A DNA stretch of 36,993 bases from an uncultured Oscillospiraceae bacterium (GTDB lineage: Bacteria > Bacillota > Clostridia > Christensenellales > Aristaeellaceae): assembly GCA_964458825.1 (NCBI GenBank), contig CAYWLE010000001.1, positions 1 to 36,993 of the forward strand, given 5' to 3'. Under the pieces are notes generated by a model, which saw only the letters and a program-made list of their open reading frames with translations, did not search any database and was not told the DNA's origin. This document shows, in pieces, positions 4,866 through 32,100 of the stretch. Position 1 is the first letter of the stretch. Each line of letters opens with the position of its first letter. The translations under genes and the position numbers were made by a program.

Positions 4866-4902
4866 CCAGCCAAACCAACCAAACGAACGAGGGTGAAGCA
4901 GC

Positions 4903-5244: not shown

Positions 5245-5277
5245 CGCAGCCGCAGCAATAAGGTAAAAATAGAATGA

Positions 5278-7834: not shown

Positions 7835-7909
7835 TGGCGGGCTTCACAAAAATATGCCCTCGCCGTGGCTGATCGTATTGAGCAAAAAAACGGCTTCAAG
7901 GATAAACCA

Positions 7910-9196: not shown

Positions 9197-9199
9197 ATC

Positions 9200-9421
9200 A
9201 TGGCAAAAAAGCTAAATTTTGAAGATGGCATGCAGGAGCTTGAGCAGCTTGCTCGCTCCCTTGAGTCCGGCGAGATGAGCCTAGAGGCGTCCTTTGCAGC
9301 CTATGAGCGTGCAATGTCGCTGAAGAAGGCGCTGGAAAAGCTGCTGGACGAGGGCGATGAAAAGATACGCCTCCTCACCGCTGCGGGCGAGGAGGAGCTT
9401 GATTCGGAGGATATCAAATGA
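9200..9421 (+). CDS. xseB: exodeoxyribonuclease VII small subunit
   Basis: 73 aa reading FEDGMQELEQLARSLESGEMSLEASFAAYERAMSL. Adjacent to xseA. Confidence 0.85.
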   Translation: MAKKLNFEDGMQELEQLARSLESGEMSLEASFAAYERAMSLKKALEKLLDEGDEKIRLLTAAGEEELDSEDIK

Positions 9422-10323: not shown

Positions 10324-10373
10324 GCCAAGCCGGCGGCACTGCAAAAAACATTGTTCAACAGAGGTCAATACGA

Positions 10374-12299: not shown

Positions 12300-13111
12300 A
12301 GCGCAGGCGTGCCGATACGGCTCTCTACGATGATCTCAACCTTGAATCCATCGCCTTGGCAAAGGCGCTCATCATGGAGGGCAGGGTCATGATCGGCGAC
12401 CGGAAGATACTCAGCCCCGCCGAGTGGGTTAAGGATGGCGAGCAGCTGCGGGTTCGCGGCGCGCTGGATAAGTATGTCAGCCGCGGCGCACACAAGCTCA
12501 GGCGGGCGCTGGAGGTCTTCTCCATCGATCTTGCGGGCAAGACCTGCGTGGATGTGGGCGCGTCCACCGGCGGCTTTACAGACGTCATGCTCCGCGCCGG
12601 AGCCGGGCATGTTTACTGCGTGGATGTGGGCTATAACCTGCTGGATTATAAGATACGCAGCGATCCTCGGGTCACAGCCCTTGAGCGAACCAACGCCCGC
12701 TTTCTGACCGCCGAGCACTTTCCCGTGGCTCCAGAGTTTGGCGCGACGGACGTTTCCTTCATCTCCCTCAAGGCCGTGTTGCCCGCCGTGCTGCCACTGC
12801 TCACTGGCAGGCGGGAGTTCGTGGCACTCATCAAGCCGCAGTTCGAGGCAGCCAAGGAGGATGTGGGGGAGAGGGGCGTGGTCACGGATCGCCGCGTTCA
12901 CCTCAGCGTGCTGATGGATATCCTCTCCTTCGTGCCGAGCACGGGCTTCGTGGCTGCGGGGCTGGATTATTCACCCATCCGCGGCCCCGAGGGCAATATC
13001 GAATTTCTGCTGCACCTGCTGCCCGCCGATGCAGCCGGGAGCCTGAGCCTGCCGCAGCTGGGGGAAGCACAAGTAAATGACATAATTTCGTTGGCTTATG
13101 ACAAAATTTAG
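12296..13111 (+). CDS. tlyA: TlyA-family rRNA 2'-O-methyltransferase (S4 + FtsJ domains)
   Basis: The SAM motif is CVDVGASTGGFTD. YVSRGAHKL and KPQFEA are also present. ATGA overlap with dxs. Confidence 0.85.
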   Translation: MKRRRADTALYDDLNLESIALAKALIMEGRVMIGDRKILSPAEWVKDGEQLRVRGALDKYVSRGAHKLRRALEVFSIDLAGKTCVDVGASTGGFTDVMLRAGAGHVYCVDVGYNLLDYKIRSDPRVTALERTNARFLTAEHFPVAPEFGATDVSFISLKAVLPAVLPLLTGRREFVALIKPQFEAAKEDVGERGVVTDRRVHLSVLMDILSFVPSTGFVAAGLDYSPIRGPEGNIEFLLHLLPADAAGSLSLPQLGEAQVNDIISLAYDKI

Positions 13112-13129
13112 AAATCGTGCTGTTGGGGC

Positions 13130-13157
13130 TTGTAAGTTTGTCGTTCTTTGGTATAGT
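13130..13157 (+). promoter_or_regulatory. candidate sigma-A promoter for nadK-argR-recN (TTGTAA-16 nt-TATAGT)
   Basis: Hexamers lie at 13130-13135 and 13152-13157 in the 72-nt tlyA-nadK spacer. Confidence 0.4.
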
Positions 13158-13183
13158 AGATATATGGACGTGAGGTGATCCGC

Positions 13184-14032
13184 ATGAAATTTCGCCGTGT
13201 TGGCATCGTCTGGAATTCTTCCAAGCGTGTCGGCTACGATATTGCATGCGAGCTGAAGCAACTGCTGGACGAATACAATATATCGATCACAACGGGCGTA
13301 AAGCTTGCCCATGCCCTCGGCAGCCCGGAGCTTGCCGAAGGCAGGCTGGAGGATTGCGACCTGCTGATGGTGCTGGGTGGAGACGGCACCATCCTTTCCG
13401 CATTGGATTATGCCGTTCCCGCAAGCATCCCCATCCTTGGCATCAATTTAGGTCGGCTTGGCTTCCTTACGGAGGTTGACCCAAGCAGCCTGCGGCAGGA
13501 TGTGGTGGATGTGCTTGAGGGGCGCTATAGCCTTGATCCGCGCATCGTAATGCGGCTGGAGGGTTACGACGATCATAGCATATTTGCGCTCAACGAAATC
13601 GTCGTCAGGCGATCCACGCCTGATGTATGCGTTTTGTCCCTTGAGATCGAAGTAAATGGGATCGTGGTGGATCGTGTATCTGGCGATGGCTTGATCGTAG
13701 CCAGCGCCACTGGCTCGACCGCCTATTCCCTGTCTGCCGGCGGGCCCATCATAAGACCCGGTCTGGATTGCTGTGTCATTACGCCGATCTGCCCGCACAC
13801 GATGAATGCCCGTCCGGTGGTCGTATCCTCAAATGATGCGATAACGATTCGTGTGCTGGATGATCGCGGAGGCGCGCATGCGGTGCTGGACGGCCGAAAG
13901 AAGGTCGGCTTTGCGCCGGGTCATCCGGGGGTCACCATCCGTCGATCGGATCTGAAGGCTCAGTTCATTCGCCTTCACGATCGCAATTATTTCAGCTTGC
14001 TGCGGGACAAGCTCTCTGAATGGACACATTGA
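13184..14032 (+). CDS. nadK: NAD kinase
   Basis: Start chosen at ATG 13184 (GAGGTG RBS). Motifs seen are GGDGT, NLGRLGFL and ASATGSTAYSLSAGGPI. Confidence 0.88.
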   Translation: MKFRRVGIVWNSSKRVGYDIACELKQLLDEYNISITTGVKLAHALGSPELAEGRLEDCDLLMVLGGDGTILSALDYAVPASIPILGINLGRLGFLTEVDPSSLRQDVVDVLEGRYSLDPRIVMRLEGYDDHSIFALNEIVVRRSTPDVCVLSLEIEVNGIVVDRVSGDGLIVASATGSTAYSLSAGGPIIRPGLDCCVITPICPHTMNARPVVVSSNDAITIRVLDDRGGAHAVLDGRKKVGFAPGHPGVTIRRSDLKAQFIRLHDRNYFSLLRDKLSEWTH

Positions 14033-14073
14033 AACTCTGCAATTCCCGAGCAGAGCAGGAGGAAGAACCGGAC

Positions 14074-14529
14074 ATGAAAACTGCGCGCCACAACCTGATA
14101 CTGGAAATCATCGAGGATAAAGACATCGAAACGCAAGAAGAGCTTGCCGAAGAGCTCAAGAACCACGGTGTGAAGGTCACGCAGGCCACCGTCTCCCGGG
14201 ATATCAAGGAGCTGCGCCTCCTCAAGGTGCTCTCTGAAAACGGCGGCTATAAGTATGCCACTGTGGAACGGGCGGAAAAGGGGCTCAACGATCGCTTTAT
14301 CCGCATCCTCACCGAGTCCATCATCTCCATGGAATGCGTCGGCAACCTGATGGTTATCAAGACCCTCTCCGCCAGCGCAAATGCAGCCTGCGAGGCCATC
14401 GATTCCATGAAGTGGAATGAGGTTCTCGGCACCATCGCCGGCGATAATACCCTTCTTATCATCGGCCGTTCCCCCGAAGCCATCGATACCATCCAGCAGC
14501 GCTTCAATAGCCTCATCAAGCGCGGCTGA
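14074..14529 (+). CDS. argR: arginine repressor
   Basis: Start chosen at ATG 14074 (AGGAGGAAG RBS). The winged-helix N-terminus reads RHNLILEIIEDKDIETQEELAEELK..VTQATVSRDIKEL. The C-terminus contains GTIAGDNT. Confidence 0.88.
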   Translation: MKTARHNLILEIIEDKDIETQEELAEELKNHGVKVTQATVSRDIKELRLLKVLSENGGYKYATVERAEKGLNDRFIRILTESIISMECVGNLMVIKTLSASANAACEAIDSMKWNEVLGTIAGDNTLLIIGRSPEAIDTIQQRFNSLIKRG

Positions 14530-14604
14530 CCCGGCCTCGGCTAACCACCACCCATAACCAACCACGACTCAGCCATCCCCCCACGGAAGGGGAGGTAGAT
14601 CAGC

Positions 14605-16299
14605 ATGCTTCTGGAACTGACAATCAAAAATATCGCCCTCATTGAATCGCTGCGCATCGAATTTGCTCAGGGATTCAATGTGCTTACGGGTGAAACGGGC
14701 GCGGGCAAGTCCATCGTCGTCGATAGCGTAAACCTTGCCCTCGGCGGTCGGGCAGATCGGGATATGATTCGCACCGGCGCGGATAAGGGCGGCGTGCAGG
14801 CCGTCTTCGATATTGCAGATAACCCGGCCGCCCTCGCCATGGCGGAGGAACTCGGCGTCGATGCAGACGGCGGGCTCGTTTCCGTTACCCGCGAGCTTAG
14901 CCGCAGCGGCCGCAATATCTGCCGCATCTCCGGCGTGTTGCTGCCCCTATCAGCCCTAAAGCAGTTCACTGCCCTTCTCGTGGATGTCCACGGTCAGCAT
15001 GAGCATCAGGCGCTCATGGATCCTAAGCGCCATATGGCGTTCCTCGATGCCTTCGGCGAAGAGCCGCATCGCTCAGCTATCTCCGCCGTCCGCGAGGCGC
15101 ATGCCCAGCGCGCAGCCACAGCCAGCCAGCTCCGCAGGCTCCTTAGGGATGCCTCCGAAAAGGAGCGCCTTATCGATACCCTTCGCTATCAGACACAGGA
15201 GATATCCGCCGCCCGCCTCAAGCCCGGCGAGGAGGAAAAGCTGGAAAAGAAGCTGCGTATGCTGGAAAATGCCGAGCGCGTCCGCACGGGCGTGGAGGAG
15301 GCATATGCCCTCACCTATGGCGGCGGTCGCGGCATGAGCGCTCAGGAGGCGCTCGTCCGTGCCAGCGCAGCCCTCGAAGCCATCTCCAGCCTTGACCCAC
15401 GCTTCCAGAAGCTCGCCGGCGAGCTTAAGTCCCTCTATTATGGCGTGCAGGATGCCGGCGTGCAGCTTCAGGCGCTCAATGAGGAAATGAACTTCGATCC
15501 CCGCCTCATGGATAAGATATCCGAGCGGCTCGACCTCATCTCCCGTCTGGAGCGCAAATATGGCTCCACCGAGGAGGAGGTCATCGCATTCGGCGAGCAG
15601 GCAAAGGCTCGCCTCAGTGAGATCGAAACCGGCGAGGAGCAGATACTTGCCCTCAAGCGGCAGCTCAAGGCGGAGGATAGGGCGCTCAGAGCCGCCTGCG
15701 ATGCGCTCAGCCAATCCAGACATGCCCTCGCCAGCGAGCTGGAGCAGGGCATCCTCGCACAGCTGAGCGACCTCGGCATGGCTCGCACCCGCTTCTCGGT
15801 TAGCTTCGTCCCTCTGGATAAACCAACCGCAGATGGAGCTGAAGCCATTGAGTTCCTCATTGCACCCAACCCCGGCGAACCGCTCAAGCCTCTGGCGTCC
15901 ATCGCCTCCGGCGGCGAGCTTTCCCGCATGATGCTTGCTCTCAAGGCGCTGGCGCTGGATCGCGGCGGCGTGGATTCCATGATCTTCGATGAAATCGATA
16001 CCGGCGTGTCCGGCCGCATGGCGCAGGTCGTGGGGGAGAAGATGCAGCAGATCGCCGCCAAGAAGCAGGTGCTCTGCGTCACCCACCTGCCCCAGATCGC
16101 CGCGCTGGGCGACTGCCACTTCCGCGTGGAAAAGCATACCGATGGCGAGCGCACCCAAACCAACGTGGTTCGGCTCGATCGCGACGGACGCATCCACGAA
16201 TTGTCGCGGCTCGTCGGCGGCGCAGAGGATAGCCAAAGCTCCCTCAGCCATGCCGCCCATATGCTCGATCAGGCACGCCGTCCAGCCAAGCAGAGCTAA
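14605..16299 (+). CDS. recN: DNA repair protein RecN
   Basis: 564 aa with Walker A GETGAGKS, a long coiled-coil middle, the signature SGGELSRMMLALK and Walker B MIFDEIDTGVSG. Confidence 0.92.
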   Translation: MLLELTIKNIALIESLRIEFAQGFNVLTGETGAGKSIVVDSVNLALGGRADRDMIRTGADKGGVQAVFDIADNPAALAMAEELGVDADGGLVSVTRELSRSGRNICRISGVLLPLSALKQFTALLVDVHGQHEHQALMDPKRHMAFLDAFGEEPHRSAISAVREAHAQRAATASQLRRLLRDASEKERLIDTLRYQTQEISAARLKPGEEEKLEKKLRMLENAERVRTGVEEAYALTYGGGRGMSAQEALVRASAALEAISSLDPRFQKLAGELKSLYYGVQDAGVQLQALNEEMNFDPRLMDKISERLDLISRLERKYGSTEEEVIAFGEQAKARLSEIETGEEQILALKRQLKAEDRALRAACDALSQSRHALASELEQGILAQLSDLGMARTRFSVSFVPLDKPTADGAEAIEFLIAPNPGEPLKPLASIASGGELSRMMLALKALALDRGGVDSMIFDEIDTGVSGRMAQVVGEKMQQIAAKKQVLCVTHLPQIAALGDCHFRVEKHTDGERTQTNVVRLDRDGRIHELSRLVGGAEDSQSSLSHAAHMLDQARRPAKQS

Positions 16300-16707: not shown

Positions 16708-18882
16708 ATGAAGAATAGACAAAGCGGCGCTTCGGCAGGAAATTGCCTGCCCAGCAGCCTTCAATATCGTAAGCAGCATAAAGTACTGGAACCTGCGCTG
16801 GTTCTGCTGGCATTCCTGCTGGCGATCGCGGTGGTTCAGCTTTCCATATCGAAGTATTCCGTCAACAGCGCCTATGGTATAGCCCAGCTTGCCGCCCGGC
16901 AGGCAGCCGCCCAGTTCCAGCAGATCATGGAGGGCAGCTTCCGCGAGCTTACCATCGCAGCCGATGCCTTGCAGACTGCCGAGGCAAACCAGACCGCGCC
17001 CGACCTGCGCAGCACCCTGCTGGGCGACCTCGTTGGCGGCACTTCCCTTGAAAATATCGCATTGATCGAGGGAAATACCCTCACCTACGCCAATGGAAGC
17101 ACAGCCGAAACGCAGGAAACAAAGGTTTATATCGTCTATCGCCGCGATGGCGTGAGCGGCAAGATCATTACAGAGGATAGCGGCGCCATCGAGCTTCGCG
17201 TGCCGGTGGATGTGCAGCGCGAGCTGGTTGGCTGGCTGGATTTGGAGAGACTGGATCAGCAGCTGCTCGGCATGCTGGATGGCAGCTATAGCTATGCCCT
17301 CTATAATTCTGCCACCGGAAAATACCTCGTCAACCGCAGCGATTTTGAACAAAAGCGCTATTATGATACCCTGCTTGATATCGATGTGGACGGCAGCGCC
17401 GCCGCCCTTATGACCTCCAGCGAGGCTCAGGCAAGGGTTCGAATCGGCGGCGAGTCGATCTACATTGCCCAGTGCCCCAGCGGCATACAGCCGTGGTGCG
17501 TGGCTCTGATGCTGCCGGAGGAGCTTGCTTCGACGGAAAACAGCCATATCCTGCTGTGGCTGCACGTTGCAAGCGCCGCCTTGCAGCTTGGCTTGCTCGC
17601 TTACGCGGCGGTTTACCTCGTCCGCAGCTGCTCCCGGGAGAAGAAGATCTGGCTCCAGCGGCGTCGGATGGGCGTTGCAATGCTGGATAGGCTCGCCAAC
17701 GATGCCTCTCTGGTGATCTGCGCTTACAGCCGCAGCGAGGATAGGATAAAGGATTTCCACGAGGGCTTCAGGCTCAACGGCTGCGCCGATCATGAGCCGC
17801 CCAAGAGCATAGAGGCGCTTTCCAGCCAGTATGGCATAGCTGAGGATGATGTGGAGCAGCTGCGCGAGAGCCTGCGGGAGTGCCGCAGCGGTCTGTGTTC
17901 GGAGCTGAACCTGAATGCCTCGGCGCAGGATGGCGAGCATCTGCTGCGCATAGAGATGCAGTGCATGGAGGACAGGCAGGACTGCGTGCTGCTTTCCCTG
18001 CGGGATTGCACGCTGGATATGGAGCGTGAGGATGTGCTGCTGGCCGAGGAGAGCTTTCGGCGGCGCATGCAGGGCAAGGCTATGAGCATATGGCAGATCG
18101 ATGTTGCCCGGAATCGCTGGAAGCTGACGGGCGGCAGCGTGCCGGATGCACTGCGCAGGCTGGGCGTCAACGGCGAATGTCGCGATTACATGTGCGACCT
18201 TGCCGGCGCTCTGCGGGAGTACATCGAGGCGAACGACTACGAATGCTGTGCCGAACAGATGAGCGTGGAGGGGCTGAGCAGGCTCATGCGCACCGGCGGT
18301 CACCAGACCACGCTGGAGTGCCGTGCGCATTCCCTAAAGAGCGGCGCTTACGAGTGGCACAGGCTGCTGGTTCGCGTATACAGGCATCCTGAAAAGGGTG
18401 AAATGATCGCCGATCTCTATGTAATGAATGTGGATGCGGAGAAGAATGCCGAGCTGGAGCGGCAGGAGCGCGCCCGCGTGCTTCAGCAGACCCTGACGGC
18501 CATCAGCGGCATCTATAACGGTCTTTACTATGCGGAGCTGGATATGGATAGGTGCTATACGGCAAAGGCCGTTGGCGGCAGCATTTCCAGCCAGCTGAGC
18601 CAGAGCTATCGTGGCATGGTGGACGCCTTCGTGGCTGGCGATGTGCATCCCGAGGACAGGGAAGCGATACGGCAGCTGCTGGATCCCTATCATCTGCGCA
18701 GGCGCATGACGGAAAACTCCCATCTGGTTCGCCATGAATATCGCAGGCGTGTGGGTGAAAATTATGAAACCGCCGCCATCATCGTGCAGGCTGCACGATT
18801 CGAAAATGGCACTGTGCGCGATATCGCCATCGCCATGCGCCGCTATACCGAAAAGGCAGAAAAGGGTAATATGTCGATCTGA
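16708..18882 (+). CDS. membrane sensor protein: TM, ~240-aa Cache-like ectodomain, TM, three PAS-like cytoplasmic modules, no recognisable output domain
   Basis: 724-aa ORF with TM1 ALVLLAFLLAIAVVQL and TM2 ILLWLHVASAALQLGLLAYAAVYLV. The cytoplasmic part has repeated PAS-like ends such as EWHRLLVRVYRHPEKGEMIADLYVMNVDAEK and YETAAIIVQAARFENGTVRDIAIAMRRY. I saw no GGDEF, EAL, HATPase or HTH motifs. The RBS is weak. Confidence 0.7.
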   Translation: MKNRQSGASAGNCLPSSLQYRKQHKVLEPALVLLAFLLAIAVVQLSISKYSVNSAYGIAQLAARQAAAQFQQIMEGSFRELTIAADALQTAEANQTAPDLRSTLLGDLVGGTSLENIALIEGNTLTYANGSTAETQETKVYIVYRRDGVSGKIITEDSGAIELRVPVDVQRELVGWLDLERLDQQLLGMLDGSYSYALYNSATGKYLVNRSDFEQKRYYDTLLDIDVDGSAAALMTSSEAQARVRIGGESIYIAQCPSGIQPWCVALMLPEELASTENSHILLWLHVASAALQLGLLAYAAVYLVRSCSREKKIWLQRRRMGVAMLDRLANDASLVICAYSRSEDRIKDFHEGFRLNGCADHEPPKSIEALSSQYGIAEDDVEQLRESLRECRSGLCSELNLNASAQDGEHLLRIEMQCMEDRQDCVLLSLRDCTLDMEREDVLLAEESFRRRMQGKAMSIWQIDVARNRWKLTGGSVPDALRRLGVNGECRDYMCDLAGALREYIEANDYECCAEQMSVEGLSRLMRTGGHQTTLECRAHSLKSGAYEWHRLLVRVYRHPEKGEMIADLYVMNVDAEKNAELERQERARVLQQTLTAISGIYNGLYYAELDMDRCYTAKAVGGSISSQLSQSYRGMVDAFVAGDVHPEDREAIRQLLDPYHLRRRMTENSHLVRHEYRRRVGENYETAAIIVQAARFENGTVRDIAIAMRRYTEKAEKGNMSI

Positions 18883-18944: not shown

Positions 18945-19679
18945 CTAGCAGCCATATTTGATCCTGATGCGGTCGAGCTTGCGGCCAAAGGGTCGCGAGA
19001 TGAGGTTCAGGAAAACCACGTTGGATACCGCATAGATAATGGTATAGGGCAGGGCGGTTGCCAGCGCGGCAAGATAGAGGCCGAGGTTGAAGCTGCCGTT
19101 GTACCACGTGACCGTCCAAACATCCATCACGAAGGAGTAAGCTATCCCGGCAAACACGCCGTAGAGGCTCATGACGATACGGCTTTTGCGTATCGGCTTG
19201 GCAAGCAGGCCGGCAAGCAGCCCGATCAGCCCCCACGAAAGCATCTGAAACGGCGTCCAAGGTCCTTGTCCGGCATAGAAATTCGATATCAGCGCCGAGA
19301 GCGCGCCGGTGAGGAAGCCTGCCTCGCCGCCGAGATAAACCGCCGTAATGACGACCACCGCCGTCACCGGCTTGAATGCCGGTATCACGGAGAAAATGAG
19401 CCTGCCAAGCACCGATAGCGCCGTCATTACCGCCACGAGTATCATCCGCCGTGAGCCGGTCTTCCGCCGCTCATAGCCGCAGCAGAAGAGCAGTATGGAC
19501 ATCAGCGTAACCAGCAGCGAGGTGAGGGCGTAGCTCCTGCGTCCCGGGCCCACAGAGAAGCCAAGCACCAAGGCAGGGATCAAAATAAAGGGCAGTATGA
19601 TGCCCAGCGCCCGCCGCAGCCGCTTGCTTCTGATCACGGGCAGGCGAAGCTCTGGCCGATGGAAGGTGATCTGCTTCAT
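18945..19679 (-). CDS. ECF transporter substrate-specific (S) component, predicted corrinoid-specific by context
   Basis: 244 aa with 6-7 TM segments and an S-component-like core (FKPVTAVVVITAVYLGGEAGFLTG...GQGPWTPFQMLSWGLIG). ATGA overlap with the upstream ATPase gene. Confidence 0.65.
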   Translation of the reverse strand: MKQITFHRPELRLPVIRSKRLRRALGIILPFILIPALVLGFSVGPGRRSYALTSLLVTLMSILLFCCGYERRKTGSRRMILVAVMTALSVLGRLIFSVIPAFKPVTAVVVITAVYLGGEAGFLTGALSALISNFYAGQGPWTPFQMLSWGLIGLLAGLLAKPIRKSRIVMSLYGVFAGIAYSFVMDVWTVTWYNGSFNLGLYLAALATALPYTIIYAVSNVVFLNLISRPFGRKLDRIRIKYGC

Positions 19680-21304
19680 CTGTGACCGCCATTTCTGCGG
19701 CAGAGCGCCGCTGCATCCTCCGCCGTGGCTACGCCGGTATACCAGCCGCGACAGATGCGGTTTGCGGAGGTGGTGTAGAAGCTGTTCGCATCAAAGAAGC
19801 TGCGCGGCAGATCCTCCGATACGATCTCACCCCGGAAAAAGAGCGCGCATCGATCGGCACACTTGGCGGCAAACTCCACATCGTGGGTCATGATAAGCAC
19901 GGTAACGCCATCCGCCTTCAGCCGTTGCAGGATATCCAGTACGTGCCTCTGGCTGTGTGCGTCGATGCCCTTGGTTGGCTCGTCCAGCAAAAGCAGCCGG
20001 GGTCTGGATGCAAGCACCTTCGCAAGGGCAACCAGCTGCTGCTCGCCGCCGGAGAGATCATAGGGATGCAGCTCCAGCAGGTGATCTAGGCTATAGGGCA
20101 GGGAGGCAGGGTCGCAGCCAACCTCCTGTAGCTCCTCGCGCACGGTCATCTTCAGGAAAACGGTCTGTACGTCCTGCGGCAGCATGGCAACGCACTCCCG
20201 ATAGAGGGTCTGACCGCGGTATTTCTCTATCCTCTGGCTGAATATGCGCACCGAGCCGCTGTAGGCATGCAGAAGCCCCGCGCAGAGCTTTAGCAGCGTG
20301 GATTTGCCGGATCCATTTGCGCCGAGGAAGCAGAATATCTCCCCGCAGCGCACGCTCAGGCTGAGGTCGCTCAGTACGTCTGGCAGCTCCCGTCCATAGC
20401 GGAAGCATATGTTCTTCAGCTCGAGGGCTACTTCCTTCGGGCGCTGGGGAGCCTCGATGGGCAGGCTGGATACCTTGTTTGCATAACCTTCCCGCACAAA
20501 GCGCCGACCCTCCCGCACGGTAATGGGGCAGGCGCCGCTTCCATCCAGCGAATGGAAGAGCCGAACCGCGCCGGGCATGGCGTCCAGCAGGCTTGGGTTG
20601 CTGCGCAGCCGCTCGCAAGCGGCATGAGGCGGAAGATTAAGGCTGAGGCTGCCGTCTTCCAGAACCAGCACACGGTCTGCCATGGGCAGCGCTTCCTCCA
20701 GCCGATGCTCGATGAGGATAATGGTAAGCCCCATGTCCTGATGGAGCTTGCGAATGGTTGCCAGAAAATCCGAGGCCGCGATGGGGTCGAGCTGGGAGGT
20801 TGGTTCGTCCAGCAGCAGTATGTCCGGCTGGGCAACCATCACGGCAGCAAGGTTCAGCAGCTGCTTCTGACCGCCGGATAGCTGGGAAACATCCCGCTCA
20901 AACCAGTCGGCGATGCCAAAATAGCTCGCCATCTCAGCCACGCGACGGCGGATAACGCTCTGCGGCAGAGCCAGATTTTCCAAGGCGAAGGCAAGCTCGT
21001 GCCAAACCTTGTCGGTCACAAGCTGCTGTTCCGGGCGCTGCATAACGTAGCCAATGCGGGCGGCGGAGATACCCTCGTTCATATCCTCCACAGGCTGACC
21101 AAAGCAGTAAATGCTGCCGCTGCGCTCGCCGAGGGGAGCCAGCTCCCGCTTGAGCATGCGCATGAGGGTGGATTTGCCGGAGCCGGTGGCCCCCATCAGC
21201 ACGATAAAATCGCCCGCCTCAACGCTGAAGCTGACGTGCGATAGTATGTCCCTCTGTGCTGCCGGATAGCGGAAGCTCAGATCTTCGACTTTAAGAATTT
21301 CCAA
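19676..21304 (-). CDS. ecfA: fused tandem ECF/ABC ATPase (EcfA-EcfA')
   Basis: Two NBDs are present. One carries GATGSGKST/LSGGQKQ/LLLDEPTS and the other GANGSGKST/LSGGEQQ/LLLDEPTKG. Start set at TTG 21304 (MEILKVEDLSF, GGAGGAG RBS) instead of the track start 21451, which would overlap ecfT by 175 nt. Confidence 0.88.
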   Translation of the reverse strand: MEILKVEDLSFRYPAAQRDILSHVSFSVEAGDFIVLMGATGSGKSTLMRMLKRELAPLGERSGSIYCFGQPVEDMNEGISAARIGYVMQRPEQQLVTDKVWHELAFALENLALPQSVIRRRVAEMASYFGIADWFERDVSQLSGGQKQLLNLAAVMVAQPDILLLDEPTSQLDPIAASDFLATIRKLHQDMGLTIILIEHRLEEALPMADRVLVLEDGSLSLNLPPHAACERLRSNPSLLDAMPGAVRLFHSLDGSGACPITVREGRRFVREGYANKVSSLPIEAPQRPKEVALELKNICFRYGRELPDVLSDLSLSVRCGEIFCFLGANGSGKSTLLKLCAGLLHAYSGSVRIFSQRIEKYRGQTLYRECVAMLPQDVQTVFLKMTVREELQEVGCDPASLPYSLDHLLELHPYDLSGGEQQLVALAKVLASRPRLLLLDEPTKGIDAHSQRHVLDILQRLKADGVTVLIMTHDVEFAAKCADRCALFFRGEIVSEDLPRSFFDANSFYTTSANRICRGWYTGVATAEDAAALCRRNGGHR

Positions 21305-22155
21305 CGGATCATCTCCTCCACTTCCATTATAACGGGCAAAAGGCTCAGCAGCGCATAGGCGATGGTCGCTGCGATTGCCAGCGGCGTGGGCGCGGGCATG
21401 GCAAAGCTCGGATAATAGCTGCAAGTCAGGCTGCCCGAGGCCGCCGCCCATATGGTGACGCTGGAGAGCAGCAGGCAGAGCAGGCAGGCAAGCCCATCCT
21501 TCATTCGAAAGTGAAAGAGGGCAAAGCGCGTGCGCCTGCCAATGCCGTAGCCGCGGGCGGACATGGAATCAGCGGTAATCACGCCGTTCTCCAGCGCCCA
21601 AGAAACCAGCACAGAGAATATGCGTACCTCGCCGCGAATGCGGTCAATGAGGTTTTCTTCCCGGAACAAGCCGAGCGCCCTCTGCGCATCCCGCACCCGC
21701 TTTGCCTGTTGGCGAAGCAGGGGAATATAGCGCAGGGCAATGGAGAGTATCAGCGTGAGCTTGGGCAGTGCCGAACCAAATACATAGAGCAGCTTGTCGC
21801 TGGTCATGATCTGCTGAAAGGAGCGGAACCAGTAGAGCGCCGATAGCAGCATCAGCCCGAACACAAGCCCGTAGAGCACGGCTTCAAGGGTGATGGGATT
21901 ATCATTCAATATAAAAAGCACGCTGCTGCCCGCATGTGAGAATATGGGGTTGAGCAGCACCGACAAGCCAAATAACATGAGGTAGCCTGCATGCTCCTTC
22001 AGCCGTGTGTCTGGATTGCGCAGCAAATAATAGCTGAGCGCGCCGATGAGGGAGATGAGCAGCATCGCCGGGTTCATCAGGAACATGGCAATGCCCGCCG
22101 TCAGTATCAGCCAAAGAAAGGCGGCGATGGGGTTCAGCTCAGCCAGTGTGTTCAT
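21277..22155 (-). CDS. ecfT: ECF transporter transmembrane (T) component
   Basis: Start set at ATG 22155 (MNTLAELNPIAAFLWLIL), giving an ATGA overlap with the upstream stop. Polytopic membrane protein with CbiQ/EcfT-like ALRYIPLLRQQAKRVRDAQRALG and ADSMSARGYG. Confidence 0.8.
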   Translation of the reverse strand: MNTLAELNPIAAFLWLILTAGIAMFLMNPAMLLISLIGALSYYLLRNPDTRLKEHAGYLMLFGLSVLLNPIFSHAGSSVLFILNDNPITLEAVLYGLVFGLMLLSALYWFRSFQQIMTSDKLLYVFGSALPKLTLILSIALRYIPLLRQQAKRVRDAQRALGLFREENLIDRIRGEVRIFSVLVSWALENGVITADSMSARGYGIGRRTRFALFHFRMKDGLACLLCLLLSSVTIWAAASGSLTCSYYPSFAMPAPTPLAIAATIAYALLSLLPVIMEVEEMIRWKFLKSKI

Positions 22156-23720
22156 TTCAGATCCTCGCCATTTGAAAGTGTGTATTGCCAGAGAACCACG
22201 TCGCCATCCTTGAGCACGCAGCTCTCGCAGCCCACGGAGGGGAAGACTCCGTTTACGGAATACATCCAACCGGACTGGGAGCCAAGGTCAAATTCATAGA
22301 GGTTGGCAATGCCGTTGACATACGCCATGCCCGCCGTGGCTCCGCTGTGCTCCAGCTGGAGATGATGCTCCTTGGCTGCGCGAAGAAGCGCGTCAAGCAC
22401 CGTTTCACCCTCCGCAAAGGGTACGTCGCAGGCGGGCAGGATCACGCCGTCCTCTGGAGTCACGCCGTTTGTACCCCTGCCGGCCACGGTATCGCAGCGT
22501 ATGGCAAGGCTGACTGTGCCGGCTGGGTCGGCTACGGTCTGCGGCGTATAGTAGCTCGAGGTTGGCTGGATATCAATCATGGTCACTGCAGCGGCAAGTA
22601 GCAGGCACACCAGCGCGGTGCTGAGCAGGCGCTTGGCACGGCCGTGCCTTTTTGCAAGCATAAGTATGACGCCGATGATGGCAAGCAGGAGTATGGCTGC
22701 ATATGCCCATAGCTTCCAGCCAAGCTCTGCCTGAAGAGCCACAAGAGCGCTTGCATCGATGCTTTGGGCAGCCACGTCCCGCAGGGCATAGAGCGGCGAT
22801 GCAGCCTCGATGGATGCAAAGGCAGCCAGAGCCTGAACCGTCGCCGTGGCGTTTGCATCTCCACCGAGCTGGTGGGCAAAGGAGCCGTCCGGCAGCCGGT
22901 GGGCAAGTATCGCTTCGGCGATGGTATTGCCGTTCTTTATAAAGCGCTCGTCGGCGCTGGCATCAATGCCGAGGGAGGAGAGGGCGATCAGCACCTGACA
23001 GGCGCTCTCGCAGTTCTCCACGCCGTAGCTGGCATAACCGCCGCTTAGCTTCTGTGCGCCGGAGAGAAAGCCAAGCCCGGATTCGATGGCATCGGCAACC
23101 TCGGCTTGATAAGCGGAACCATCATAGCAGGCAAGCGCCTGCAAGCACATGGCGGTGACGTCTGCATCGGAGTAATTGCCGTTTACAGCCCAGCCGCCGT
23201 CCTCCTTGCGCAGGGCTAGCAGCTGCTCGGCCAGCTTGTCTGCGCTCCAAAGCTCGGACGGAGCGCCCGCATTGAGCAGGTGCAGCCCGTAGATATAGCT
23301 CATGATGCCCATCTGACCCACGGCTGCGTCCACCATATCGGCGGTCACGTATTCCCGTCCGCCGCAGGCGATCAGGGTGAGCATGGCGCGCATGCGGCTG
23401 GATGGATTGCTCAGCTTGCCTTCCTCCAGAGCCTCCCGCAGGGCGCGTGCATAGGCGGCGGAATCAAAATCCACGCCGAGGCGGCTGAGGGCAAAGATAT
23501 AGTGGTCCGCCGAACCGTTGACCTCGGGCGCGAGGATATTATCCACCCAAGCCTGCAAGCTGCGCTCGCCGCGGGCATGGGTGATAACGCCGTCGATGAT
23601 GCTTGCGGCGTCATCGGCGGCGTGGGCAGCGCTCATTGCGGGCAGCGCGGCTGTCAGCAGCGCGCAGGCAAGAACGAGTATCCAATAAAGCTTGTTTTTC
23701 ACTAGAGAGCTGTGCTTCAT
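22152..23720 (-). CDS. secreted alpha/alpha-toroid (prenyltransferase/terpene-cyclase-like repeat) domain + two-TM hairpin + C-terminal DUF4430 (transcobalamin beta-domain-like) protein
   Basis: 522 aa with signal peptide KLYWILVLACALLTAALPAMSAAHA. Repeats include EDGGWAVNGNYSDADVTAMCLQALACY, GGYASYGVENCESACQVLIALSSLGI and LPDGSFAHQLGGDANATATVQALAAF. The TM hairpin is LWAYAAILLLAIIGVILMLA-KRHGRAKR-LLSTALVCLLLAAAVTMI. The C-terminus reads GTVSLAIRCD...ETVLDALLRA...SGWMYSVNGVFPSVGCESCVLKDGDVVLWQY. Confidence 0.7.
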   Translation of the reverse strand: MKHSSLVKNKLYWILVLACALLTAALPAMSAAHAADDAASIIDGVITHARGERSLQAWVDNILAPEVNGSADHYIFALSRLGVDFDSAAYARALREALEEGKLSNPSSRMRAMLTLIACGGREYVTADMVDAAVGQMGIMSYIYGLHLLNAGAPSELWSADKLAEQLLALRKEDGGWAVNGNYSDADVTAMCLQALACYDGSAYQAEVADAIESGLGFLSGAQKLSGGYASYGVENCESACQVLIALSSLGIDASADERFIKNGNTIAEAILAHRLPDGSFAHQLGGDANATATVQALAAFASIEAASPLYALRDVAAQSIDASALVALQAELGWKLWAYAAILLLAIIGVILMLAKRHGRAKRLLSTALVCLLLAAAVTMIDIQPTSSYYTPQTVADPAGTVSLAIRCDTVAGRGTNGVTPEDGVILPACDVPFAEGETVLDALLRAAKEHHLQLEHSGATAGMAYVNGIANLYEFDLGSQSGWMYSVNGVFPSVGCESCVLKDGDVVLWQYTLSNGEDLK

Positions 23721-23771: not shown

Positions 23772-24443
23772 TCAGCCGATCTCCACGCGGCAAACCGGGG
23801 GAACGAGGATCATGCTGTCGCTGCGGGCGGAAATGACGCAGGAAGCATCCACGCTGAAGCTTACCTTGCCCTCGGCGTCGGTCACGAGGTCGGTATCCAC
23901 GCCGTCAACGGTGATGATCGCGCCCTCGAGGGGATAGGTCAGAGGATTCCAGTTTGCATCGAAGCCATAGGCGGTCAGGGTAAGCTCTGCCTCGCCAGCC
24001 TCGCCGGTGAGGATGCCGCAGTCAAAGAAGCAGTAGGTGTCCGTCCAGCTGGTGAGATCCTGATAGCAGTAAGCATTGATCATGTCGCCGTCCGCCACGG
24101 TATCCGCGAGGGAGAGGGAGGCTACGTTGTTTACATAGTAGCCATAGGAACCGCCGTTCGCCACGCCCCAGAGCTTGCTCAGGCTAAGACCATAATCGGA
24201 ATCCACAGCCTCATAACCCTCGGCAGCGCCGCCGGGATAGGCAGCCTCGTGGGCGAGGCAGAGCGCATCGGAAATGGTGAGCATGCCGTCGCCGTCGGTA
24301 TCGCTCATTTCAACGGGCAGGTAGGCAAGCTGAACGCCGTCGCTTGTGATGCTAACATAGACGGTTTCAGCCATGGCGCAGCCGCCAACGGCCAGCGCCA
24401 GAGCAAGGATGCTCAGGATAATTGCGCGTGCAGTGTTCTTCAT
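23772..24443 (-). CDS. lipoprotein with DUF4430-like domain (with embedded EF-hand/dockerin-type Ca loop) and C-terminal Ig-like domain
   Basis: 223 aa with a lipobox-type signal peptide (ILALALAVGGC). The sequence continues VYVSITSDG...DTDGDGMLTISDAL...GGSYGYYVNNVASLSLADTVADGDMINAYCY. Strong AAGGAGG RBS. First gene after the riboswitch. Confidence 0.65.
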   Translation of the reverse strand: MKNTARAIILSILALALAVGGCAMAETVYVSITSDGVQLAYLPVEMSDTDGDGMLTISDALCLAHEAAYPGGAAEGYEAVDSDYGLSLSKLWGVANGGSYGYYVNNVASLSLADTVADGDMINAYCYQDLTSWTDTYCFFDCGILTGEAGEAELTLTAYGFDANWNPLTYPLEGAIITVDGVDTDLVTDAEGKVSFSVDASCVISARSDSMILVPPVCRVEIG

Positions 24444-24505: not shown

Positions 24506-24546
24506 AGAAAAAAGCGCCACGCCGCCAAGCAGGCGACGATCAGCGC
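24506..24546 (-). terminator. riboswitch expression-platform terminator
   Basis: The - strand reads GCGCUGAUCGUCGCC-UGCUU-GGCGGCGUGGCGC followed by UUUUUU. It sits between the aptamer and the first RBS. Confidence 0.65.
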
Positions 24547-24599: not shown

Positions 24600-24775
24600 T
24601 GCGCTTTTCCTGCCCAAAAACGTAAGCCTCAGCCGCGATCAACGCGGCATCTTGCAGCAAAGCGGCAGGCGTCCCGACTCATGCCCCGCTGGGGCATTCA
24701 CGGTAATGGCGGTTGCGACGGTCTCTCACCGTACTTCCCCCGCTCGCTTTGCACAGGCTCAATACAAAAGCCTGC
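24600..24775 (-). promoter_or_regulatory. cobalamin (B12) riboswitch aptamer
   Basis: The - strand contains GGGAAGUACGGUGAGAGACCGU (24718-24739), compared with consensus AGGGAA..GGUG.AA.UCC. GCCAUUACCGUGAAUG follows. A B12-box-like GAGUCGGGACGCCUGCCG lies at 24663-24680, compared with AGUCAGGAUACCUGCC. Order and spacing fit RF00174. Not verified with a covariance model. Confidence 0.7.
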
Positions 24776-24779
24776 ATAA

Positions 24780-24808
24780 ACTCTAGCACATCGCCAATGA
24801 AAAGTCAA
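24780..24808 (-). promoter_or_regulatory. candidate sigma-A promoter of the riboswitch operon (TTGACT-17 nt-TAGAGT)
   Basis: The -35 is at 24803-24808 and the -10 at 24780-24785 on the - strand, immediately upstream of the riboswitch. Confidence 0.5.
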
Positions 24809-24937: not shown

Positions 24938-25690
24938 TCAATTGAAAAGCCTTGCCGGTCGCTGAGGCGTTTTCAGTGAGATGAGCGCCAACAGGATCAG
25001 ACCGAGGCTGAGCGCCAGATGCACAAGACTGCCGCTGAGCAGGTAAAAGATCAGCATCGAGCCGGCCACGAGCAGGCAGCGCGGTGCGTTTCTCCGGCGC
25101 AAGAGCAGGTGCAGTATGCGTGCGGCATGGCGTGTGCGCGGCTGGCTTGGCGCGGCTGGCTGGCTGCGCAGAATATTTGGATGCTCGCAGATGAGCTGGA
25201 CAAGCAGCGGCGCATCGATCACTGCTACCCGCGGAGCCTTCAGTTCGGCGGCGAGGGCGCGGCAGTCGGGACTTGCCTTGCAGCTTGCGCAGACCACCAT
25301 GCGCTCGGCATCCCTGTTCCGCCGCCATAGCTCAAATAGCGCCTCTGGCTGCAAATCGCAGGATGGATGCCTCTGAATGAGCTGCACCCGCCCAACCTCG
25401 CCATAGGCAAGCTTCACCAGCTGCTCGGCAGCGCTGCGGGCGGCGGACTCCTCCATGCAGGCAAGGGTCATGATGCTACCCCGAGCGCTGCGGCGCAGGT
25501 TCCGGCGGCGAAGCAGGGGCAGTCCCTGCACGGCTGCTGCAATGCGGCGAAAAATGCGTCCAAGCAGCACGATGCACAGCATGGCGAGGGCTGCGCTGAG
25601 GATGCGGTTTTTGAAGGTACGCTGAAAGAAAAAGTAAAATGCAGCGGCGAGGAGCAAGTCCAGCGCGGCACGATCAATTTTTTTGCCCAT
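24938..25690 (-). CDS. hypothetical membrane protein (2 TM, ~110-aa basic soluble domain, 2 TM)
   Basis: 250-aa ORF with an AGGGAGG RBS 6 nt upstream of the ATG. TM segments are LLLAAAFYFFF, ILSAALAMLCIVLLG, CLLVAGSMLIFYLL and LALSLGLILLALISL. No family was recognised with confidence. Confidence 0.6.
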   Translation of the reverse strand: MGKKIDRAALDLLLAAAFYFFFQRTFKNRILSAALAMLCIVLLGRIFRRIAAAVQGLPLLRRRNLRRSARGSIMTLACMEESAARSAAEQLVKLAYGEVGRVQLIQRHPSCDLQPEALFELWRRNRDAERMVVCASCKASPDCRALAAELKAPRVAVIDAPLLVQLICEHPNILRSQPAAPSQPRTRHAARILHLLLRRRNAPRCLLVAGSMLIFYLLSGSLVHLALSLGLILLALISLKTPQRPARLFN

Positions 25691-25818
25691 AGAAGCCTCC
25701 CTTTGCAGGTTTTTCAGTAAGTCTTGCCGAAATTAAATAGAATATACAGAAGCCAATTTAGCTTTGGTTCACATTGATGCATTAAGCTATTCTTATCGGA
25801 ATGAAAGAGGTGGTTGCC

Positions 25819-26970
25819 ATGCGGATCGGCATCATGGGCGGAACGCTCGACCCGGTGCATCTGGGTCATCTGGCAATTGCCCGCGCCGCGATGGAGCAGC
25901 TAAAGCTGGATGGCGTGATGCTGCTGCCCGCCGGTGATCCGCCCCACAAGGGAAACCTTGCCCCCAAGGAGGATAGGCTGGAGATGGCTCGTCTGGCTGC
26001 GGCAGAGCTGAACGGCGGCTTTGCCTGTGCGCTGGAAACGAGGCGCTCCGGTACGACCTACACCGTGGATACCCTCACCGAGCTGCGGGAGATGAACCCA
26101 CGCACGCAGTGGTGCTATCTGGTCGGCGCGGACACGCTGAAGGTTATAGATACATGGCGGCGCTTCGACGAGGTTGCCAAGCTGTGTGAGATCGCGGTGC
26201 TTGGCCGCGGCGCTGAACCTGCCGATCAGGCGCTGGCACGGAGCCTTGAGCAGCGCTACGGCGCGCAGATCCGTCTGCTGCCCGTGAGCGGCCCGGAGAT
26301 ATCCTCCACAGAAATCCGCCGCCGGGTGAACCATGGCTTGGATATCGGCGCTCTGGTTCCAGATAGCGTCGCGGCATACATCCGCTCCCATGGGCTCTAC
26401 CTCTGCGGCATGCAGCGAAATGAGCTTATGCAGGAGCTTCAGTCCACCCTTTCGCCGGGCAGGCTCCGACACACGCTTGGCGTGGCGGAAACGGCGCTTC
26501 GGCTGGCGGAGCGCTATGGCGTGGATGCAAAAAAGGCTGAGCTTGCAGCGCTTCTGCACGATTGTGCCAAGCACATGCCCGTCGAGGAGATGCGCGCGCT
26601 GGTAAAGCGGGGCTGCACCGACAGCGATGATGAGGAAATGGCAAACGAGCGGGTGCTGCATGCGCCGGCAGGCATGGTTTGGGCGCGTGAGCGCTTCGGC
26701 GTAAACGACCCGATGATCCTCTCCGCCATCCGCAGGCATACGCTGGGCGACCGGGGCATGAGCCCTCTGGATGCGCTTATCTACACGGCGGACTTTATCG
26801 AACCCAACCGCAAGCCCTTTGACGGGCTGGAGGAGGCACGGGAGCTTGCCGAGCATGATATCTTCGCGGCGGCGAGGCGCTGTGCGGAGCTAACCAACCA
26901 ATTTGTATTGAGCGGAGGCGGGAAGCCGCATCCGAAGACGCAGCTGATGCTGAATAACAGCAGCAAATAG
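25819..26970 (+). CDS. nadD: fusion of nicotinate-nucleotide adenylyltransferase (NadD) and YqeK-type HD phosphohydrolase
   Basis: Start chosen at ATG 25819 (AGAGGTGG RBS). The N-terminal half contains IGIMGGTLDPVHLGHL, the (H/T)xGH nucleotidyltransferase motif. The C-terminal half contains RLRHTLGVAETA...LLHDCAK...HAPAG...IRRHT, matching an HD domain of YqeK type. Confidence 0.85.
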   Translation: MRIGIMGGTLDPVHLGHLAIARAAMEQLKLDGVMLLPAGDPPHKGNLAPKEDRLEMARLAAAELNGGFACALETRRSGTTYTVDTLTELREMNPRTQWCYLVGADTLKVIDTWRRFDEVAKLCEIAVLGRGAEPADQALARSLEQRYGAQIRLLPVSGPEISSTEIRRRVNHGLDIGALVPDSVAAYIRSHGLYLCGMQRNELMQELQSTLSPGRLRHTLGVAETALRLAERYGVDAKKAELAALLHDCAKHMPVEEMRALVKRGCTDSDDEEMANERVLHAPAGMVWARERFGVNDPMILSAIRRHTLGDRGMSPLDALIYTADFIEPNRKPFDGLEEARELAEHDIFAAARRCAELTNQFVLSGGGKPHPKTQLMLNNSSK

Positions 26971-31128: not shown

Positions 31129-32100
31129 ATGTGTACCGCAATGAGCTATAAAACGGCTGCCCATTACTTCGGACGCACCTTGGATTATGAGCGCGGCTAT
31201 GGCGAGCAGGTCATTATCACGCCACGCCGTTGTCCGCTGCACTTCCGTCGGATGGATGCTCTGGATAGCCATAGCGCCATCATTGGCATGGCTGTTGCGG
31301 TTGGTGATCAGGCGCTTTATTATGACGCCGCCAACGAGCATGGCCTTGCCATGGCTGGGCTGAACTTTCCCGGCAACGCCTGCTATTATCCCGAGACGGC
31401 GGGGAAGGATAATATCGCTCCCTTCGAGCTCATGCCGTGGGTGCTGGGTCAGTGCAAAAGCACCGCCGAGGCACGCTCCCTGCTGGAGAGGATCAACATC
31501 TGTAATATTGCCTTCAGCAATGAAATGCCGCTCTCGCCGCTGCACTGGATCATCTCCGACGGCTCTGCCTCCATCACCGTGGAAACCCTGCGCGACGGCA
31601 TGAGGATCCATGATAACCCGCTCGGCATACTCACCAATAACCCTCCCTTCGATTACCACATGACCCACCTCTGCGATTTCATGGGCGCTTCCGCCAAGCC
31701 TGTGGAGAACCAGCTTGGCTTGCCAAGCCTCAAGCCCTATAGCCGCGGCATGGGCGGCATGGGTCTGCCGGGCGATTGGTCGTCCGCTTCAAGGTTCGTT
31801 CGGGCAGCTTTCGTCAAGCTCAGCTCCGTCTGCGGCGCGGGGGAGAATGAGAGCGTCAGCCAGTTCTTCCACCTGCTCGGCGCTGTGGAGCATACCCGCG
31901 GCTGCGTGCAGCTGGAGGATGGCTCCTATGAAATCACCCGCTACACCAGCTGCATCAATGCCGATACCGGCGTGTATTACTACAAAACCTATGAAAATAG
32001 CGGCGTCTGCGCTGTGGATATGCATCGCTGCGATTTGGATGGCTCGCATCTCTATGCCTATCCGCTCATCGATGAGATGCAGCCGCACTATCAAAATTGA
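31129..32100 (+). CDS. choloylglycine hydrolase family Ntn-hydrolase (bile salt hydrolase / penicillin V acylase type)
   Basis: Starts MCTAMSYK...HYFGRTLDYE, giving the Cys2 nucleophile and the FGR..D motif. 323 aa. AGGAGGA RBS. Confidence 0.85.
   Translation: MCTAMSYKTAAHYFGRTLDYERGYGEQVIITPRRCPLHFRRMDALDSHSAIIGMAVAVGDQALYYDAANEHGLAMAGLNFPGNACYYPETAGKDNIAPFELMPWVLGQCKSTAEARSLLERINICNIAFSNEMPLSPLHWIISDGSASITVETLRDGMRIHDNPLGILTNNPPFDYHMTHLCDFMGASAKPVENQLGLPSLKPYSRGMGGMGLPGDWSSASRFVRAAFVKLSSVCGAGENESVSQFFHLLGAVEHTRGCVQLEDGSYEITRYTSCINADTGVYYYKTYENSGVCAVDMHRCDLDGSHLYAYPLIDEMQPHYQN

Follow-up and report, generated by a model that had tools for sequence, protein, structure and literature searches.

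In animals, vitamin B12 is handled by transcobalamin (TC), intrinsic factor (IF), and haptocorrin (HC), exported proteins in which a toroid domain precedes a small beta-grasp (SLBB) domain, with a flexible soluble linker between the two, and which have the endocytic receptors CD320 or cubilin as partners. Transcobalamin binds cobalamin with sub-picomolar affinity; its alpha and beta domains, when expressed separately, share a very small interface and assemble only with cobalamin, and the isolated beta domain is able to bind cobalamin alone (PMC5599065). Here we report the analysis of TC522, a bacterial protein of 522 amino acids (aa) that has the same domain order and, like the animal carriers, is exported and linked to B12. 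It is encoded in a 36,993-nucleotide (nt) stretch of DNA (hereafter, the window) from an uncultured Oscillospiraceae bacterium (contig CAYWLE010000001.1, assembly GCA_964458825.1). In contrast to the animal proteins, TC522 has ~75 residues with two transmembrane (TM) helices in place of the linker, hence it is an integral membrane protein, and its partner would be an energy-coupling factor (ECF) transporter instead of an endocytic receptor. We consider it likely that a spore-forming gut clostridium uses TC522 to capture corrinoids outside the cytoplasm, as a subunit of a dedicated, B12-repressed importer of the ECF-CbrT type.

Bacterial relatives of the animal carriers were described by Burroughs, Balaji, Iyer and Aravind in 2007, who reported toroid-fused bacterial SLBB proteins and a second paralogous SLBB protein in CbiO/CbiQ-like operons, predicted that the bacterial toroid+SLBB proteins function in B12 scavenging, and proposed a lateral transfer of the toroid+SLBB version to animals; their main text also cites a Desulfotomaculum protein of 1,174 aa in which the toroid is N-terminal (PMC1796856). 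Part of the supplement to that paper gives the cassette of the Bacillus cereus group, in which the gene for an SLBB+toroid+LPXTG protein is followed by those for a protein with immunoglobulin (Ig)-like and SLBB domains, CbiQ, CbiO, and a TM protein. This cassette and that of TC522 are both from Firmicutes, both have a predicted role in B12 scavenging, and share a toroid+SLBB surface protein, an Ig-like-bearing SLBB protein, and genes for the T, A-A', and S components. However, the Bacillus protein has the SLBB domain first and a C-terminal LPXTG sortase anchor, whereas TC522 has the toroid first and an internal TM hairpin, and the SLBB+toroid+LPXTG gene opens the Bacillus cassette, whereas the TC522 cassette puts the gene for another exported protein, P223, first. 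The combination 'toroid+TM' occurs 0 times in the same part of the 2007 supplement, and every toroid+SLBB entry of its part 5 is metazoan. In full-text searches on DUF4430, transcobalamin-like bacterial proteins, and CbrT, we found no account of the hairpin form or of the biochemistry of the family. Thus, comparative genomics has recognized systems of this kind since 2007, and the internal hairpin together with the animal-like domain order seems to be new.

In L. sakei, Verplaetse et al. described two exported proteins, the TC alpha-like Lsa1840 and the TC beta-like Lsa1839, in an ECF-like operon (bioRxiv 10.1101/864751). Like the TC522 cassette, this operon has five genes, for a TC-alpha-like protein, a TC-beta-like protein, EcfT, a fused EcfA-A', and an S component; it differs in that it encodes the alpha-like part and the beta-like part as two proteins, that experiments point to haem uptake, and that no riboswitch was reported. 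Among transporters of solved structure, the one with the S component nearest to that of the TC522 cassette is ECF-CbrT from Lactobacillus delbrueckii (6FNP), the EcfT and EcfA/A' modules of the two being of like type; according to passages of the paper on it, CbrT imports cobalamin and cobinamide (PMC5997447). As described in these passages, the ECF module on which CbrT depends is a shared one (group II), whereas the TC522 cassette encodes a dedicated module with a fused A-A' in a single operon; no extracytoplasmic binding protein is described in them, whereas the TC522 cassette encodes two exported accessory proteins. Analogous accessory surface binders with high affinity for cobamides are BtuG, BtuH, and BtuJ of gut Bacteroides, which are likewise encoded several per locus (PMC8941943, PMC10404256); however, they have unrelated folds, reside at the Gram-negative outer membrane, and feed the TonB-dependent BtuB, whereas TC522 would feed an ECF transporter. 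The high-affinity B12 binders of B. thetaiotaomicron include DUF4465-containing proteins (PMC13398666). The idea that BtuH is itself a DUF4430 protein was dropped, since the BtuH paper mentions neither 'DUF4430' nor 'transcobalamin' and it is DUF4465 that is implicated instead (PMC13398666).

The TC522 gene and its parts are located in the window as follows, with the basis of each assignment:

22152..23720, minus strand: TC522 gene, encoding the toroid - TM hairpin - DUF4430/SLBB protein of 522 aa, with an ATG start
23619..23720, minus strand: signal peptide, aa 1-34 (hydropathy and charge)
22761..23618, minus strand: alpha6/alpha6 toroid, similar to the transcobalamin alpha domain, aa 35-320 (helices of the AlphaFold2 model, Foldseek, family profile)
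22656..22721, minus strand: TM helix 1, outside to inside, aa 334-355 (hydropathy, AlphaFold2, homologues)
22632..22655, minus strand: cytoplasmic loop KRHGRAKR, aa 356-363 (aligned family members)
22572..22631, minus strand: TM helix 2, inside to outside, aa 364-383 (hydropathy, AlphaFold2, homologues)
22155..22520, minus strand: DUF4430/SLBB beta-grasp domain, similar to the transcobalamin beta domain, aa 401-522 (Pfam, Foldseek)

The AlphaFold2 (AF2) model of TC522, computed from an alignment of 75 family members, has a predicted local distance difference test (pLDDT) value of 91 and a predicted template modeling score (pTM) of 0.80. It contains ~13 helices at aa 38-305, all at pLDDT >90, which form an alpha6/alpha6 toroid, as anticipated in a preliminary description of this DNA made from the letters alone, followed by long helices at aa 335-356 and 361-381 and then by a beta-rich domain. 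When the model was compared with the PDB using Foldseek, the 15 best matches were chains of transcobalamin, haptocorrin, and intrinsic factor, with E values from 4.9e-10 to 1.4e-7, target template modeling scores (TMt) of 0.50-0.62, and 10-15% identity. The alignments to these carrier chains span ~500-540 columns, and full-length TC, HC, and IF outrank all single-domain matches; terpene cyclases come after the carriers, with E ~5e-5, and the isolated TC beta domain 5no0 matches with TMt 0.77. The two-domain, transcobalamin-like layout put forward in the preliminary description is borne out by this ranking. The high pTM, obtained for the full chain, suggests that the domains take up a defined position relative to each other, which is indirect support for a putative mutual orientation that would give a closed clamp.

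The link to transcobalamin could not be made by simple sequence comparison, because the profiles match either cyclase-type toroids or nothing relevant. The Pfam family Cobalamin_bind (PF01122) gave no match to TC522 at E<=1 and was outside the 25 families most matched by the members of an aligned TC522 family set (75 members with 36-89% identity to the window protein). Direct sequence searches against PDB chains with the whole of TC522 and with its C-terminal domain found nothing, and the full-length family profile reached no TC, IF, or HC chain in the PDB at E<=10. What the family profile does match are squalene-hopene-type cyclases and drimenyl diphosphate synthase, with E 2e-11 to 1e-7 and with the DxDD region included. 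The class II cyclase motif DxDDTA reads DxD[VA]TA in the TC522 family, and in all the motif variants tabulated (70/75 members covered) its third Asp gives way to V, A, T, or I, a loss that argues against catalysis by the toroid. The tie to the animal carriers is therefore a remote one, based on the fold, on the broad DUF4430 model of Pfam, which also spans the C-terminus of vertebrate TCN proteins (PMC4350170), and on published PSI-BLAST work (PMC1796856). Of the two origins offered in the preliminary description, that of an evolutionary relative, albeit distant, is better supported than that of a convergent analogue, which finds less favor.

Three hydrophobic segments, and no others, were detected in TC522 by a Kyte-Doolittle scan (aa ~10-34, 333-360, and 362-388). 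The first has the organization of a signal peptide, with a K-rich n-region that has three lysine or arginine (K/R) residues within the first 12 positions, a hydrophobic core, and an AHA|AD site at which it would be cleaved; of the 75 family members, 38 have alanine at both positions -3 and -1 relative to the aligned site. Pfam DUF4430 (PF14478) matches aa 438-514 with E 8.5e-18 and is matched in all 75 members. The toroid carries DGGW repeats and, at aa 143-309, scores just under the gathering cut-offs of Prenyltrans (20.5 bits) and SQHop_cyclase_C (20 bits), which are matched in 63/75 and 67/75 members, respectively; a D..SA..YY motif is conserved in the family after TM helix 2. Translation, hydropathy, Pfam, and AF2 agree on the signal peptide, toroid, two-helix hairpin with a basic loop, and DUF4430 domain that had been read in this gene beforehand, and the motifs then quoted (EDGGWAVNG, GGYASYG, LPDGSFAHQ, and SGWMYSVNG...LKDGDVVLWQY) are every one found in the TC522 translation.

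The topology of the hairpin was deduced from hydropathy, the positive-inside rule, and the conservation of both. The inter-helix residues LAKRHGRAKR of TC522 contain five K/R and zero aspartate or glutamate (D/E) residues, and the 15 residues outside each TM helix contain 0 K/R and 1-2 D/E. The inter-helix loop is 9 residues long in all 75 aligned members, with on average 4.2 K/R and 0.01 D/E, and the 16-residue outer flanks of the hairpin are acidic (3.5-3.7 D/E vs 1.1-1.4 K/R). Because the K/R loop and the acidic flanks obey the positive-inside rule, the toroid and the DUF4430 domain are both predicted to be outside the cell and the hairpin loop in the cytoplasm, and the extracellular placement of both domains is the same even without cleavage of the signal peptide. 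The extracellular location of the two soluble domains had been predicted before; with the loop positive-inside in 75/75 aligned members it stands, and a placement on opposite sides of the membrane did not emerge.

The hairpin is a constant feature of the family, being present in 120/120 homologues among the matches listed and in 140/143 additional representatives of 50%-identity clusters; the three hairpin-less representatives are secreted proteins of 1,700-2,200 aa with 4-6 matched stretches, the best of them in the toroid part of the profile. These giant relatives, P0274 (2179 aa), P0295 (1873 aa), and P0300 (1733 aa), have an N-terminal signal segment and match the family profile with E ~1e-180. 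At least 272 homologues of TC522 are present in a 90%-clustered collection, and 5,210 50%-identity clusters match the family profile at E<=1e-30. Relatives occur in at least 534 species-representative genomes; among the matches listed, all are from Clostridia, mostly metagenome-assembled genomes (MAGs) from the gut or rumen, and the closest species-representative homologue is from an Aristaeellaceae MAG (48% identity). Since the homologues are so many and widespread, TC522 is not a chance open reading frame (ORF). The sole name for the family in the sources consulted is 'DUF4430 domain-containing protein'.

The TC522 gene lies second in a compact operon of five genes, P223, TC522, EcfT, EcfA-A', and S, in which P223 and TC522 lie upstream of the ECF genes and are translationally coupled. 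The other members of this cassette are:

23772..24443, minus strand: P223, secreted protein of 223 aa, conserved first gene of the cassette
21277..22155, minus strand: EcfT/CbiQ-type T component (Pfam CbiQ, E 1e-8)
19676..21451 (ORF as listed), minus strand: fused EcfA-A' double ATPase with two ABC_tran domains
18945..19679, minus strand: S component with a CbrT-like core at aa 76-243 (Pfam ECF-ribofla_trS and ECF_trnsprt)

The ATG of EcfT overlaps the stop codon of TC522 as ATGA, and the ATG of the S component overlaps the stop codon of EcfA-A' in the same way, while EcfA-A' itself probably starts at a TTG codon at 21304, after GGAGGA. EcfA-A' scores 328 bits with the NCBIfam model ECF_ATPase_1, above the cut-off of 315. 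Among PDB sequences, the S component matches that of ECF-CbrT (6fnp_A) best, with E 8.1e-13 over aa 76-243, the next match having E 0.11; no NCBIfam equivalog reaches its cut-off on this protein. With 244 aa as against 182 aa for the CbrT chain, the S component has ~70 extra N-terminal residues with hydrophobic segments at aa 25-43 and 50-68. This extension is probably conserved, to judge by tblastn matches in related loci that mostly cover 200-238 of the 244 aa, and may be where the hairpin of TC522 docks.

Conservation of the cassette was scored over 80 related loci from different Clostridia species. The gene order P223>TC522>EcfT>EcfAA'>S is kept in 58 of them, and a P223 homologue directly adjoins the TC522 homologue on its upstream side in 75. 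In four loci (L006, L015, L064, and L079) the order is EcfT>EcfAA'>S>P223>TC522, with a riboswitch core upstream of EcfT. In L013, L027, and L031, as well as in L008, L035, and L065, the binder genes, with or without a P223 homologue, have no adjacent ECF genes; the flanking genes checked at the first three of these loci are unrelated (polysaccharide deacetylase, PfkB kinase, GNAT, and others) and include no transporter of another type, and the binders of such loci may serve a transporter encoded elsewhere. Directly downstream of the S gene, L020 has a group II intron (D1-D4; 11831..12120, plus strand) and L022 a Clostridiales-1 small RNA (11884..12050, plus strand).

The leader region upstream of P223 contains the following elements:

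24780..24808, minus strand: sigma-70-like promoter TTGACT-17-TAGAGT with a TG extension (consensus scan only)
24647..24791, minus strand: cobalamin riboswitch aptamer, a short variant without the long peripheral extension (Rfam RF00174)
24508..24546, minus strand: probable intrinsic terminator, as expression platform, GCGC..GUCGCC-UGCUU-GGCGGC..GCGC followed by U6 (read from the sequence)

The RF00174 match covers the full model (1-189) with E 7.9e-5 in a 551-nt search. The element has the invariant core GGGAAG..CGGTGA..CCGTCGCAACCGCCATTACCGT and the B12-box-like sequence CATGAGTCGGGACGCCTGCC; this core and the B12 box are common to the above-threshold riboswitches found at the same position in L025 (52 bits) and L009 (41 bits), and the element aligns with the short variants among the riboswitches of related loci. 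The promoter lies just upstream of the riboswitch match and overlaps its 5' end, a position that suits the start of the operon. The stem at 24508..24546, which we take as the putative terminator of the riboswitch expression platform, is present in the minimum free energy fold of the leader; a simple terminator scan did not list it.

Ten of the related loci were tested with RF00174, and in 5 of them the region upstream of the cassette gave a match at or above the gathering score. On the gene strand, 60 of the 80 loci have the core motif upstream of the cassette, and in 3 others the upstream sequence is <700 nt long; over 1.02 Mb, the core pattern gave 64 plus-strand matches vs 0 on the minus strand. 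Because of the riboswitch match in the window and the riboswitch cores upstream of the related loci, we assign the cassette to the B12 regulon. In two loci a second cobalamin-riboswitch core lies between the TC522 homologue and EcfT (L066, cores at ~5935 and ~8766; L078, at ~5846 and ~8636), which suggests separate regulation of the binder and transporter genes there.

P223, the other exported product of the cassette, has at least 471 homologues and gave no match to Pfam or NCBIfam. Its AF2 model (pLDDT 91) consists of a beta-grasp domain (~aa 27-130) followed by an Ig-like domain (~aa 136-222). In the Foldseek comparison, the beta-grasp domain matches the human TC beta domain 5no0 with a probability of 0.99, TMt 0.54, and 23% identity, but with E 0.03, and the remaining matches of P223 are Ig folds. 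An hhalign comparison of the P223 domain with the DUF4430 domain of TC522 gave E 0.02-0.05, which is suggestive but not significant, with the V.V.I, GD..DaL, YYVN, and DGD motifs in register; when the P223 and TC522 families were compared over their whole length, only the signal peptides aligned. Based on the model, P223 is a probable divergent SLBB protein. The signal peptides of P223 homologues end in AxA|ETVYV in 30/46 cases, and a lipobox is present in 9/46, the P223 of the window among them; a description of the family as lipoproteins was dropped, since most homologues have the AxA site of signal peptidase I and no lipobox. The hairpin might derive from a C-terminally anchored toroid protein to which an SLBB protein encoded downstream was fused by way of its signal peptide, and L. 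sakei was considered as the split state; Lsa1839, which is listed as an Ig-like+SLBB lipoprotein in part of the 2007 supplement (PMC1796856), is the equivalent of P223, and L. sakei is therefore not a simple split version.

From these features we infer cobamide binding by TC522, closure of the clamp, transfer of the ligand to the S component, and a mechanical function of the hairpin, if it has one. Sec-dependent export would bring the toroid outside the membrane; TM1 would then run inward, leaving the fixed 9-residue K/R loop in the cytoplasm, and TM2 outward, so that the DUF4430/SLBB beta-grasp domain would also come to lie outside, beside the toroid. There, the two domains would close around one cobamide in the fashion of transcobalamin, while the hairpin, in place of the flexible linker of transcobalamin, would hold the loaded clamp at the membrane beside the S component. 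Domains held by a hairpin could work like those of TC, since separate TC domains assemble with cobalamin (PMC5599065). The CbrT-like S component would take over the ligand, with EcfT and EcfA-A' driving import, and P223 would be a probable second, outer binder, possibly of lower affinity. The assignment of B12 as the ligand is strengthened by the combination of the riboswitch with an S component closest to the B12-specific CbrT. We further speculate that the hairpin couples opening of the clamp to the transport cycle.

Several results weigh against this proposal. The Foldseek superpositions have root-mean-square deviations of 6.8-17 A, values that do not discriminate between a holo-TC-like facing of the TC522 domains and other arrangements; the toroid is nearer in sequence to terpene cyclases and prenyltransferases than to Pfam Cobalamin_bind, and a profile of the C-terminal domain reaches no TC beta chain in the PDB at E<=10. 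The RF00174 match in the window scores 26.5 bits, under the gathering score of 31.5, and ~17 of the 77 loci with enough upstream sequence show no riboswitch core by the pattern used. Furthermore, the sole experimental work on a related cassette, that of L. sakei, points to haem: haem accumulation suffered when the cluster was deleted and recovered upon complementation (bioRxiv 10.1101/864751). Corrins and porphyrins being alike in size and shape, the TC522 cassette might similarly capture and import haem or another non-corrin tetrapyrrole and not B12. We regard this as quite improbable in view of the cobalamin riboswitch, which precedes the cassette in the window and in three quarters of the related loci, and of the nearest solved relative of the S component, the B12 transporter CbrT. 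The S component of L. sakei, according to its authors, is without the cobalamin-binding residues, which suggests a diverged sub-family, and Lsa1839, an Ig-like+SLBB lipoprotein, is a counterpart of P223 and not of the C-terminal domain of TC522.

A different division of labor, in which the SLBB domain or domains alone bind the corrinoid and the toroid serves a separate purpose, such as attachment to the cell wall or a glycan or docking to P223 or to the ECF transporter, would make TC522 a two-function protein with no clamp. It would fit the ability of the TC beta domain to bind cobalamin by itself (PMC5599065), the many bacterial SLBB proteins without a toroid in part of the 2007 supplement (PMC1796856), the sequence of the TC522 toroid, which is closer to toroids of the cyclase/prenyltransferase and macroglobulin TED types than to TC alpha, and the existence of giant secreted multi-toroid relatives without the hairpin. 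We nevertheless find it rather unlikely: the toroid and SLBB domains are combined in three arrangements (the animal carriers, the SLBB+toroid+LPXTG protein of Bacillus, and TC522), which argues for a joint function, the whole-chain pTM suggests a defined domain arrangement, and it is the full-length carriers that lead the structural matches. The cyclase-like sequence of the toroid would also be accounted for if it acted outside the cell as a class II terpene cyclase/prenyltransferase-type enzyme, or worked on the membrane as a polyprenyl-lipid binder, with DUF4430 as an accessory domain; the Prenyltrans and SQHop_cyclase_C matches in most family members and the profile matches to drimenyl diphosphate synthase and squalene-hopene cyclase speak for such a role. 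Yet the catalytic DxDD(TA) motif is replaced, TC522 has a single toroid, compared with two in class II cyclases, non-enzymatic B12 carriers head the structural matches, and the protein is exported and co-translated with an ECF-CbrT transporter under a B12 riboswitch, all of which makes this role highly improbable. Capture of a corrinoid between the toroid and the SLBB domain of TC522 for an ECF-CbrT-type importer is thus the explanation that we prefer.

The genes around the cassette place the window in a member of the Clostridia at ~59% GC. Because of these surrounding genes, we consider the host to be a spore-forming member of this class, probably gut-dwelling. The neighbors at 1481..5784, 7802..16299, 25801..26970, and 31129..32100 (all on the plus strand) comprise spoIIIAA/AE/AH, xseA, dxs, and genes for an FtsJ-type methyltransferase, NAD kinase, recN, a NadD-HD fusion, and a protein of the choloylglycine (bile salt) hydrolase family. 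Convergent with the end of the operon is a 724-aa ORF (16708..18882, plus strand) with hydrophobic stretches near the N-terminus and at ~aa 290 and a long C-terminal region; it matches no Pfam family at E<=0.1 besides noise and may encode a sensor-like membrane protein. Upstream of the riboswitch, a 250-aa membrane-protein ORF (24938..25690, minus strand), with no Pfam family, is conserved in this position only in the close loci L003 and L004 (42-45% identity) and is probably outside the cassette. A raiA RNA motif (RF03072, 118.5 bits) at 36829..36993 on the plus strand is cut by the 3' end of the window.

A bolder view of the hairpin family would make it both the first subunit of a vitamin ECF transporter that resembles a substrate-binding protein and the closest living bacterial counterpart of the ancestor of the animal carriers, a conjunction that we hold to be doubtful. 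On the transporter side, the hairpin would dock on the S or T component, and the transporter cycle would pull the toroid and the SLBB domain apart, freeing the ligand. On the side of ancestry, the same toroid-then-SLBB order, the similar size when the hairpin is subtracted, and the abundance in gut Clostridia may point to such a counterpart; if this were true, the toroid+SLBB version that is proposed to have passed to animals would have had its donor lineage in the hairpin family of gut Clostridia. Gut communities are shaped by competition for B12, and the TC522 family is a concrete candidate for a surface B12 trap of Gram-positive bacteria. As a bacterial protein with the domain order of the animal carriers, TC522 could also be used for testing the bacterial origin of transcobalamin.

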